Positions 13,750 through 15,321 of a stretch of 32,000 nucleotides of DNA are shown piece after piece. The notes beneath the pieces were generated by a model. It saw only the letters and a list, made by a program, of their open reading frames with translations, ran no database searches and was not told the origin of the DNA. Location: positions 1-32,000 of the forward strand of contig JAUWWQ010000046.1 in the NCBI GenBank assembly GCA_030616775.1. The letters are read 5' to 3'. Made by a program: the position numbers and the translations under genes. Each line of letters starts with the position of its first letter. Position 1 is the stretch's first letter. This DNA is from Planctomycetota bacterium. GTDB taxonomy: Bacteria > Planctomycetota > Phycisphaerae > UBA1845.

Positions 13750-14049
13750 TTACTCGCAACACGTCGCGTCTGCGGAACAGTCACAGGTCGGCTCGCTGCC
13801 GCGCAACATCCCATTGAGCACTGCGGTCGCGCAGCCTACGCCGGACCGTACGGAAATGGCCTCGGTTATGCAGTTTAGAGCACAAGCCCCACATTCCATG
13901 CACGCGTCTCGGTCGGCAATCCGGGCCTTTTGGCTCTCAATGACCAGTACACCATGCGGACATACTTCCGTGCACACTCCGCAGCCGGTGCATTTTTCAC
14001 TATCCAAGATCAGTGTCACGACATTGGGGAGATAACGTAACCGTGTCAT
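13750..14049 (-). CDS. hgcB: Mercury methylation ferredoxin HgcB
   Basis: 99 aa, opening MTRLRYLPNVVTL. Two CX2CX2CX3C motifs (CTGCGVCTEVCP, CMECGACALNC). The conserved GVGCA cysteine and a C-terminal vicinal CC (..ATCCE) are present. GGGAGG lies 5 nt upstream of the ATG, and the gene is immediately downstream of hgcA. Confidence 0.9.
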   Translation of the reverse strand: MTRLRYLPNVVTLILDSEKCTGCGVCTEVCPHGVLVIESQKARIADRDACMECGACALNCITEAISVRSGVGCATAVLNGMLRGSEPTCDCSADATCCE

Positions 14050-14160
14050 TTGTGCCTCCCGGGTTGCAGGCCCTCATGCGCCGGGCGCCGTCGATCGTCT
14101 CTCTCACGTCGCTGCCGTGGGCGTTGCCTGCTCCGCATAACCGCTGTCCGTCGTCGCTGC

Positions 14161-15321
14161 TTAGAAGAACCGCCCGGCCAGCCACAGACCGGTGCCTATC
14201 ACCGCGCAGGCCGCCTGAACGGGCACTGCCACACGCATTTCCCGGCGAACGCCGGACAGCGACGTGTAGGTTGAGGCCCCGGTAAAGTTCATAGCCACGT
14301 AACTCACCACCGCAGGTATAAGCAGCAGCCAAGCGCCTGTGCTTGCCGGATTCTCAAAAGTGCCCGGATGCGCCCACGCAAACGCACTCAAAGACAAAAC
14401 AAGGATCAGCCCGAGCCAGGCCCCTTTTGCGGAAAACGCCCTTCCGGGCAGCCAGGGCAGCAGCACGGGCGTTAGTACGGCACCAACCGCAAACGCAGCA
14501 AGCAACAGTGCTGCGCTTTGCACGCCTTCGGTTCCCGCTCGGTGGAGCGAATAAATCCCCGGACCCAGCCCTGCCAACACGAGAAAACAGGCCGCCAGGA
14601 ATAGCGCGTGTTTCGCCCCTGTAACCAGTTCGAGCGGGATGAGGACCACACGCTCGCGGAAAGGAAACTGCACGCGACGCATCTGCGGTGTCGCCTTCAT
14701 GCCGGCGCTTACAAACGCGGGAATATCCTCCGCACGCACCGGCCCGAAGACCACGCTAAAACCGGATCGTCGTGCCACCTCGTGGGCACTGACACCGGGA
14801 GCGCCCAACTGCGGAACCACAAGCCGTCGATGGGAAACGACCTCGCCCAGGCCCACGACATCCACCCGTTTGGCGATCTCCTCAGTGCCGAAGGTCCCCT
14901 TGCCCGCTGCGCACCAGACGTTGACCCCCTTGGTATCCAGCACCAGGATCCAGGCGTCCAGGCCACCCAGTTGCGAGCGAAGCCGGTCGAAGCTCATCTT
15001 GTAGTTGGCTGACACCAGCACCGGAGACTCTTGTGTTGGAGACCCCGCGGCGTACAACCCCGGCTCCACCCGAAAGCGCATCCGACCGATTCCCCATCGC
15101 ACCTTCCAACAGCCCACACGATCTGCCCTGGTCAAGGTTGTGGATGTTCGGGGAACGTCGCCGACCGGAGTGCCAACCGTCCCCTCAATCCAAGGTTCGA
15201 CGATCGAGGGAGGCTTTCGATCAACTCTCGCAGGACCGCTTGCCTGGCAGCAGGTCGACTCCGGCGGGTCATCTGTCGGTACGTCACAACTAGAGGACGT
15301 TGTCGCCCGCAGCTCGTCCAC
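14161..15321 (-). CDS. hgcA: Mercury methylation corrinoid protein HgcA
   Basis: 386 aa with a GTG start preceded by AAGGGAG. The diagnostic cap-helix motif N-V-W-C-A-A-G-K (GVNVWCAAGKGTFG) sits in a CFeSP-like corrinoid domain. The C-terminal half has about 5 TM helices. Confidence 0.92.
   Translation of the reverse strand: MDELRATTSSSCDVPTDDPPESTCCQASGPARVDRKPPSIVEPWIEGTVGTPVGDVPRTSTTLTRADRVGCWKVRWGIGRMRFRVEPGLYAAGSPTQESPVLVSANYKMSFDRLRSQLGGLDAWILVLDTKGVNVWCAAGKGTFGTEEIAKRVDVVGLGEVVSHRRLVVPQLGAPGVSAHEVARRSGFSVVFGPVRAEDIPAFVSAGMKATPQMRRVQFPFRERVVLIPLELVTGAKHALFLAACFLVLAGLGPGIYSLHRAGTEGVQSAALLLAAFAVGAVLTPVLLPWLPGRAFSAKGAWLGLILVLSLSAFAWAHPGTFENPASTGAWLLLIPAVVSYVAMNFTGASTYTSLSGVRREMRVAVPVQAACAVIGTGLWLAGRFF

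Follow-up and report, generated by a model that had tools for sequence, protein, structure and literature searches.

A 32,000-nucleotide (nt) stretch of DNA from a Planctomycetota bacterium of the class Phycisphaerae (GenBank assembly GCA_030616775.1, contig JAUWWQ010000046.1, positions 1 to 32,000; the window) carries an intact hgcA-hgcB mercury-methylation pair between two groups of arsenic-type (ars) genes. The explanation of the locus that we consider probable is that this pair is functional and that its expression is under the control of the adjacent, divergently transcribed arsR. Its parts differ in strength. The identity of hgcA and hgcB is near-certain, judged by their predicted proteins. 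Both genes are under purifying selection, with ratios of nonsynonymous to synonymous substitution rates (dN/dS) of 0.27 and 0.15, respectively, against a sister genome (L001: the Phycisphaerales JSU86 “chromosome” CP070827.1, whose HgcA is 92% identical). Regulation by ArsR has roughly even odds.

The hgcA-hgcB pair

Gene identities were tested against curated NCBI equivalog and NCBIfam profiles, each bit score being read against the model's own cut-off. HgcA matches the HgcA_corrinoid model NF040863 at 463.5 bits (cut-off 275) over residues 56-385, as well as PF03599, and HgcB matches the HgcB_ferredoxin model NF040864 at 121.2 bits (cut-off 99). The model for fused HgcAB-like paralogues gives HgcA 201 bits (cut-off 285), and that for the corrinoid iron-sulfur protein (CFeSP) 71.7 bits (cut-off 306). 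Since these two models fail while the HgcA and HgcB models pass, this is a true separate hgcA-hgcB pair. A first, sequence-only reading of the window had proposed a complete pair at 13750-15321 and had named membership in either paralogue family among the findings that would refute its prediction of Hg methylation; the pair stands, with all its diagnostic motifs, and both families are excluded.

The cap-helix motif NVWCAAGK, which that reading had pointed out, occupies HgcA residues 134-141 and includes Cys137. Across 20 homologues N134, V135, W136, C137, A139, G140, and K141 never vary, and A138 hardly does. The C-terminal transmembrane domain it had also described is visible by hydropathy as five hydrophobic segments at residues ~230-382, so that the protein can be divided into a Cys-bearing N-terminal extension (residues 1-80), a corrinoid-binding domain, and a five-helix membrane domain (residues ~230-382). 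HgcB has both expected CX2CX2CX3C motifs, CTGCGVCTEVC (C20/23/26/30) and CMECGACALNC (C50/53/56/60), and the GVGCA cysteine (Cys73). The “terminal CC” ascribed to it needs a small correction: the tail reads ...TCDCSADATCCE, with E99 following the vicinal pair C97-C98, which is therefore penultimate rather than strictly terminal.

An AlphaFold2 model of HgcA, built with 20 homologues, has a mean predicted local distance difference test (pLDDT) score of 77.5. With it, Foldseek finds a deposited HgcAB model (9a0b_A; 46% identity, E = 9e-22) as the best match, followed by CFeSP large subunits. There is no solved HgcA structure; by sequence, only CFeSP chains match among solved structures.

The public gene calls for an identical HgcA and for its 92% relative (P0001, P0002) begin at Met81, giving 306 amino acids (aa) labelled hypothetical. 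The 386-aa protein from a GTG start is supported instead by five lines of evidence: homologues of ~385 aa align with it end to end, sharing its N-terminal cysteines and a conserved PWIxGxVxTxxGxVPRVxTTL..DRxGxWKARWGIGRM stretch; dN/dS is equal in codons 2-80 and over the remaining codons; the AlphaFold2 model gives residues 41-80 a confident structure; the match to the HgcA profile begins at residue 56; and a good Shine-Dalgarno sequence (AGGGAG) lies 7 nt upstream of the GTG. The public calls thus start hgcA 80 codons late and miss the Cys-bearing extension, and the window provides a complete, correctly started hgcA.

The cysteines of this extension are C12 (in SSSCD) and C24-C25 (in STCC). 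They are as the sequence-only reading gave them, but not unusual, as it had supposed. An N-terminal HgcA extension with PCUGP, or CC in some homologues, has been described (Haft and Gwadz, bioRxiv 10.1101/2022.07.06.499078), and most of the ~385-aa homologues have an N-terminal cysteine extension; by sequence comparison, the Cys-rich N-terminus here is the CC form of this published CU/CC extension. Where homologues usually have CC, the aligned position here reads C-D, and the CC pair lies 12 residues downstream, in a pattern identical in the sister.

The 111-nt gap between the two genes had likewise been singled out. Its length is exact, it is long, and hgcB does have its own Shine-Dalgarno sequence within it (GGGAGG, 5 nt upstream of the ATG). 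It is not unique, however: the spacers of 81 hgcA-hgcB pairs have a median length of 13 nt, and 5 of them reach at least 100 nt, which puts this one in the upper tail. A structured RNA or attenuator is ruled out, since the spacer folds worse than shuffled sequence (z = +2.07) and Rfam has no match in 13600-15700; a terminator scan found no terminator-like site inside the spacer. In the sister genome it has equal length and 90% identity. The best reading is that of ordinary intergenic DNA carrying the ribosome-binding site of hgcB.

Decay of the pair to a non-functional state might be suspected from the loss of ~984 bp upstream of it (below), from the SSSCD where most homologues have CC, and from the public gene calls beginning at Met81. 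We consider this very improbable: both reading frames are full length and keep every essential motif, the low dN/dS of the two genes extends to the N-terminal extension, the displaced CC pair is kept in the sister too, and both genes have good ribosome-binding sites.

By homology, Cys137 of the cap helix would serve as the lower ligand of the corrinoid, from which a methyl group would be transferred to Hg(II), while HgcB, with its [4Fe-4S] clusters, Cys73, and C97-C98, would re-reduce the corrinoid and help to handle the metal. From these roles, the organism, an uncultured member of the Phycisphaerales, is predicted to methylate mercury.

The upstream region and proposed control by ArsR

Two alignments relate the upstream region to that of the sister. 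One, free of gaps, pairs window 13829-15490 with L001 9592-11253, and the other pairs 15479-15651 with L001 8436-8608; relative to L001, ~984 bp have been deleted between arsR and hgcA in the window lineage. In L001, arsR is divergent from a string of four genes, encoding a 110-aa Cys-rich membrane protein, a DsbD_TM-family protein (9032-9748), HgcA, and HgcB. A relic of the second of these persists in the window: its translation, FAAGYAAPLTVAMLGVSLGRLSRFAGVLAGAIRNQAGVVLIGVGFWLLLSL followed by a stop, matches the C-terminus of the L001 DsbD_TM-family gene. About two thirds of the 224-nt arsR-hgcA region is therefore a gene remnant, and the ancestral intergenic DNA is limited to 15491-15545. 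An in-frame ATG in the relic could yield a 39-aa single-helix peptide. Microhomology at the deletion junction was considered and rejected, the 12-nt overlap of the BLAST alignments being partial chance similarity only.

The synteny with L001 is informative over ~2.8 kb only, between scaffold gaps of 100 N at L001 8336-8435 and 11255-11354. Exact 100-N gaps also occur at 329-428 and 6288-6387, and arsR and hgcB are both cut by gaps. Gene order past the gaps is therefore untrustworthy, and the apparent rearrangement of the sister, with truncated hgcB and arsR, was rejected as an artefact of scaffolding. The gene order of the window is identical in independent assemblies from two other public read sets, and so is not an assembly artefact.

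The short region between the relic and the beginning of arsR is conserved in the sister. Together with the start of arsR, it includes a promoter-like site on each strand, TTGACA-17-TACACT (15573-15545) on the minus strand and TTGACG-17-TAACAT (15507-15535) on the plus strand. A perfect palindrome, CATATAC-N8-GTATATG (15533-15554; a single copy in the window), overlaps both -10 boxes and the arsR start, making it a candidate ArsR operator by position and symmetry. No second copy was found at the left arsR at up to 3 mismatches. The adjacent ArsR scores below the cut-off of the PRK10141 subfamily model (78.4 bits; cut-off 97). Its translation includes ELCVCNLC, which we take to be the As(III) site with three cysteines known from ArsR proteins of the R773 type (the ELCVCDLC pattern).

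The proposed mechanism is then as follows. hgcAB would have its promoter in the short stretch that it shares with the divergent arsR-acr3; the three-cysteine ArsR would bind the palindrome over both -10 boxes and repress hgcAB until it binds As(III). Its release would let hgcAB and acr3 rise together, as was shown for ArsR2 and hgcAB in Pseudodesulfovibrio mercurii ND132, where ArsR2 controls hgcAB and responds to arsenic (Gionfriddo et al., bioRxiv 10.1101/2022.10.17.512643; AEM 2023). Deletion of the two genes, for the small Cys-rich membrane protein and the DsbD-family protein, would have brought this promoter next to hgcA.

How often ars genes accompany hgcAB elsewhere was surveyed in 80 species-representative genomes and 80 metagenome contigs; these were the best matches in each set, which biases the sample towards relatives. 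Of the former loci 28, and of the latter 23, have one or more ars-type neighbours, about a third of all 160. In the species-level set, 11 of 80 loci have acr3 no more than 1 kb from hgcAB, and its density there is 0.75 per 10 kb, against ~0.05 farther away (~15-fold). An arsR is found within 1.2 kb upstream of hgcA in 9 loci, 2 of them divergent; one of these two, a Syntrophorhabdus locus (L059), has the same divergent acr3-arsR/hgcAB layout as the window. The association of hgcAB with ArsR-type regulators, which the sequence-only reading took as established, is indeed so (PMC7438021; PMC11984097; bioRxiv 10.1101/2022.10.17.512643), and, in keeping with control by ArsR, arsR-linked hgcA showed lower hgcA/gyrB transcript ratios in a lake (PMC11984097).

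Several points weigh against the proposed regulation, or against what might be concluded from it. The palindrome is not significant by itself (at least one match in 27 of 100 shuffled sequences). The promoter scan found 3 sites against 0.6 expected, but its consensus is of the E. coli type and may not apply to Planctomycetota. Most of the arsR genes upstream of hgcA (7 of 9) are co-directional with it, unlike the divergent one here. The ars link of hgcAB is not conserved in the lineage: a Phycisphaerales locus whose HgcA is 68% identical has no ars genes, and instead Rrf2, cysteine-synthase-like, and multihaem cytochrome neighbours. In ND132, the hgcAB transcript level does not predict methylation rate. 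We know of no cultured planctomycete methylator. The suggestion in the sequence-only reading that its context ties hgcAB to arsenic metabolism was in this respect overstated, given the ars-free relative and the minority of surveyed loci with ars neighbours.

Such points also bear on an alternative, that hgcAB and the ars operons are merely co-located because genes related to metal(loid)s move and collect together, with hgcAB constitutive or otherwise regulated and ArsR controlling only acr3. The left module is convergent with hgcB and so cannot be co-transcribed with hgcAB; ars-type neighbours are absent from roughly two thirds of the surveyed loci; hgcAB context varies even within the Phycisphaerales; the region has been rearranged by deletion; and the palindrome does not reach statistical significance. 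Chance accumulation does not readily account for the ~15-fold enrichment of acr3 close to hgcAB, for strings in which hgcAB is co-directional with arsR-arsP-arsE-arsF-arsG (L115, L036, L087; below), or for the fusion of ArsE-type thioredoxins to HgcA in nine protein clusters, and control of hgcAB by an ArsR has been demonstrated experimentally in ND132 (bioRxiv 10.1101/2022.10.17.512643). Simple co-location is therefore in our view unlikely, though well short of negligible, and control by the adjacent ArsR is retained as the preferred reading.

Flanking ars modules and other neighbouring genes

Table 1. Features of the window around hgcAB, in order of position. Scores are in bits, with the model's own cut-off in brackets where there is one.
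Feature	Position	Strand	Description	Basis
Molybdopterin oxidoreductase	7265-9667	minus	800 aa, twin-arginine (Tat) leader	
arsR, first gene of left module	10297-10620	plus	107 aa, CVCDL motif	PF01022; NF033788, 90.6 (55)
ArsP-family permease	10667-11995	plus	442 aa, CSCS motif	PF03773, 264.5
MTH895/ArsE-family small thioredoxin	12007-12267	plus	86 aa, GPGCPKC	TIGR00412, 98.4 (62); PF13192
ArsF-family membrane-anchored thioredoxin-like protein	12483-13016	plus	CRTC	NF040494, 102.3 (60)
ArsG-family DsbD_2/CcdA-like membrane protein	13025-13705	plus	226 aa from ATG	NF040495, 296.5 (200); PF13386
hgcB	13750-14049	minus	99 aa, ATG start, 2x[4Fe-4S] ferredoxin	NF040864; Fer4 families
hgcA-hgcB spacer	14050-14160	minus	111 nt, carries hgcB Shine-Dalgarno sequence	Sequence reading
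hgcA	14161-15321	minus	386 aa, GTG start, corrinoid methyltransferase	NF040863; PF03599
Relic of DsbD_TM-family membrane gene	15334-15490	minus	Last ~50 codons and stop	Alignment to L001
Divergent control region	15491-15573	both	Promoter-like sites and palindrome	Conserved in sister
arsR, right module	15546-15944	plus	132 aa from GTG, 130 aa from ATG at 15552	PF01022; NF033788, 85.3 (55)
acr3 arsenite efflux permease	15945-17021	plus	Abuts arsR	TIGR00832, 467 (282.8)

As the sequence-only reading had it, the pair is flanked by two ars modules (Table 1), all of whose genes match curated or family models: the right unit, in which arsR and acr3 abut, is transcribed divergently from hgcA, and the left module runs convergently towards hgcB, the stop codons of hgcB and the arsG-like gene being 44 nt apart. 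The left arsR is preceded by an imperfect 16-nt palindrome, ATGGTAATATTGCCAT (14 of 16 positions symmetric; 10275-10290), ending 6 nt upstream of its start and a candidate operator for it. The permease that follows falls below the curated subfamily cut-offs (SaoE, 117.6 bits against 325; SO_0444, 107.5 against 300), and, compared with the Pfam model, has ~100 extra residues inserted (roughly 185-290).

ArsE, ArsF, and ArsG each score above their curated cut-offs, and their genes are adjacent in the order arsE-arsF-arsG. An independent gene call for the ArsG-like protein also gives 226 aa. Between arsE and arsF is a gap of 215 nt (12268-12482) with no convincing open reading frame; a related locus (L087) has DGC-domain (PF08859) genes at this place. 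From their architecture we infer a resemblance of ArsE, ArsG, and ArsF to a CcdA-type transmembrane thiol relay. ArsE is also discussed by Gionfriddo et al. (bioRxiv 10.1101/2022.10.17.512643).

The molybdopterin oxidoreductase beyond the left module had been described as Arr-like. This identification is not supported: the protein scores 201.7 bits with the ArrA model NF041714 (cut-off 1600) and 300.5 with that for PhsA (cut-off 694), and its closest solved relative is the Thermus polysulfide reductase PsrA (2vpw; 222 bits, full length), with ArrA behind it (6cz7; 177 bits, partial). It is nearer to PsrA/PhsA, with no curated cut-off passed. A 4Fe-4S partner is encoded at 6516-7289, with no gene for a membrane subunit adjacent, and a gene for an EF-hand protein (5239-6051) adjoins this pair. 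Gionfriddo et al. (bioRxiv 10.1101/2022.10.17.512643) describe a Psr/Arr-like operon of ND132 that arsenic induces together with hgcAB.

Thiol-redox and permease genes near hgcAB

The metal(loid)-thiol neighbourhood of the window, arsR-acr3 on one side and arsR-arsP-arsE-arsF-arsG on the other, recurs across phyla. On a single strand, L115 has arsR-arsP-arsE-arsF-arsG-hgcA-hgcB, and L036 (Bacteroidota) has arsE, arsR, two arsF, arsG, arsP, hgcA, hgcB, and acr3; L080 has hgcA-hgcB-arsE-arsF-arsG, again co-directional, and in L087 hgcAB is likewise co-directional with genes of the arsR-arsP-arsE-arsF-arsG type.

Of the 125 loci with enough flanking sequence, 14, from several phyla and often with no arsR or acr3 nearby, have a DsbD-family gene immediately before hgcA and in the same direction. 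Genes of the DsbD_TM family, of the kind now reduced to a relic in the window, stand directly upstream of hgcA in L001, L016, L018, L030, L031, L033, L063, L095, L097, L098, L107, L111, L114, and L129; in L001, L030, and L114 they are themselves preceded by a gene for a small Cys-rich membrane protein. These DsbD_TM-type neighbours carry vicinal-cysteine motifs, SCC(T/N) and C-x2-3-CC(G/N)P, where CcdA-type proteins have a single Cys, and none of the curated NCBIfam models matches them.

The clusters with thioredoxin fusions, at least nine in number (P0100 and P0121-P0128; 54-80% mutual identity), join a CxxC thioredoxin of the ArsE type (MTH895) to HgcA, placing it just before the HgcA CCC or PCCGP motif. 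The founder of this group passes both curated models. In one member (P0127) the first Cys of the CxxC has been lost. The contigs encoding fusions (L086-L088, L105, L106) also carry arsP, arsE, arsF, and arsG, or arsR-arsD-arsA.

In the literature searched, the coverage of which was incomplete, we found no report linking hgcAB to ArsE/ArsF/ArsG-type or DsbD_TM-type genes, and none of vicinal-cysteine DsbD-family neighbours of hgcA; the literature on hgcA and thioredoxin, of which parts were covered, yielded no description of a thioredoxin-HgcA fusion. With such coverage, these links are to be taken as a lead, not as a claim of priority.

Compatible with control by ArsR is the possibility that hgcAB and the thiol-redox and permease genes make up one working system. 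ArsE-type thioredoxins and DsbD/CcdA-family proteins might keep the HgcA CC/CU motif and the HgcB cysteines reduced; alternatively, the ArsP-family permease and its companions might carry a metal(loid) bound to thiols through the membrane, to and from HgcAB, whose native substrate could be a metal(loid) other than mercury. The position of a CxxC thioredoxin before the CCC or PCCGP motif in nine diverged fusion clusters suggests such a connection, as do the DsbD-family genes directly upstream of hgcA in several phyla, their vicinal cysteines in place of the single Cys of CcdA, and the inclusion of a DsbD-family gene and the 110-aa Cys-rich membrane protein gene in the sister hgcAB operon. Further, the ArsP-family SaoE and the thioredoxin-like SaoT have been linked to organometallic chemistry (Haft and Gwadz, bioRxiv 10.1101/2022.07.06.499078).

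Other evidence is less favourable. The window has lost its DsbD-family partner while hgcAB has stayed under purifying selection, so this partner is dispensable, and most of the surveyed hgcAB loci, in samples limited to the 80 best matches and therefore biased, lack the thiol-redox and permease genes altogether. According to the cited literature, hgcA and hgcB suffice for methylation in ND132, which makes no methylarsenicals (bioRxiv 10.1101/2022.10.17.512643), and the NCBIfam names give ArsE, ArsF, and ArsG a role in the reduction and efflux of nitroaromatic arsenicals. A single working system is accordingly put forward as a tentative idea, on the unlikely side.

More doubtful still is its most specific form, in which ArsE-type thioredoxins, the vicinal-cysteine DsbD-family proteins, and the ArsP-family permease would be overlooked partners of HgcAB, serving as a thiol relay or transport path that would deliver or remove thiol-bound metal(loid) at the N-terminal CC/CU motif of HgcA; we consider this unlikely. 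If true, the “ars” flank would be the supply line of the methylation machinery itself rather than an arsenic-resistance bystander, which would supply candidates for the step by which Hg(II) is taken up and handed over, and a hint of what HgcAB natively does. The thioredoxin, DsbD-family, and permease genes that recur with hgcAB in several phyla are in any case concrete candidates for study of Hg(II) delivery and of the purpose of HgcAB.

Genomic setting

The nearest named HgcA proteins are from Phycisphaerales metagenome-assembled genomes (MAGs), at 92% and 68% identity, and hgcA has been reported before from Phycisphaerae in metagenomes. The GC content is flat across the window (~0.56-0.63), and the remaining genes are housekeeping ones: folC-like, aroB, maf, glycosyltransferases, and Sir2. 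A horizontal-transfer island therefore has no compositional support, with folC-like, aroB, and maf genes as flanks; the setting of hgcAB is chromosomal, with no obvious island. In 29001-31000 and 31186-31971 there are strong local GC skews (+0.32, +0.18) over a PMT_2/TPR gene, and a gene for a YHS-domain (metal-binding) protein at the right end of the window.

Comparison with known systems

The HgcAB proteins of ND132 and Geobacter sulfurreducens (Parks et al., 2013, as cited in later papers) resemble those of the window in their two-gene organization, the NVWCAAGK cap helix, and the five-helix membrane domain of HgcA, and, for HgcB, in the 2x[4Fe-4S] ferredoxin with its counterpart of Cys73 and a C-terminal CC; the 46% identity of HgcA given above is to a deposited model based on ND132. 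The HgcA proteins of ND132 and G. sulfurreducens (GSU1440) are reported to have a Cys-Sec pair (PCUGP) in the N-terminal extension, whereas the window HgcA has Cys-Cys, with the vicinal pair ~12 residues farther downstream. The window pair also differs in belonging to a Planctomycetota lineage and in being known from its genes alone.

A more distant relative is the CFeSP large subunit of the acetyl-CoA pathway, which shares the corrinoid-binding Rossmann-like domain (HgcA residues 83-205). HgcA lacks the N-terminal [4Fe-4S] domain and the TIM-barrel partner of CFeSP, and has instead the Cys cap helix and the membrane domain.

For regulation, the closest parallel is arsR2-hgcAB of ND132, where, as here, the gene immediately upstream of hgcA encodes an ArsR/SmtB regulator, in an arsenic-type context. 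There are three differences: the ND132 arsR2 is co-transcribed with hgcAB, while the window arsR is divergent from it and abuts acr3; ArsR2 has a distinct four-Cys motif, against the classical three-Cys ELCVCNLC; and no further ars genes adjoin hgcAB in ND132.

The left module is like the ArsP/ArsEFG organoarsenical resistance genes (NF040494, NF040495, TIGR00412) in both the set and the order of its genes, arsR-arsP-arsE-arsF-arsG. Its permease, however, matches at the level of the Pfam family model alone, falling short of the curated subfamily models.

Finally, hgcAB flanked by acr3 and arsR has been seen in other MAGs (McDaniel et al., 2020, PMC7438021, Figure 6; Peterson et al., 2025, PMC11984097, Figure 4c). 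The genes named at those loci are acr3, arsC, arsM, arsB, and arsR, while the second flank here is arsP-arsE-arsF-arsG, a thiol-redox/permease set that we did not find treated together with hgcA in the literature searched. Both the hgcAB-ars link and the CC/CU extension are thus already published, and to this known association the present locus adds a well-resolved example from the Phycisphaerales.

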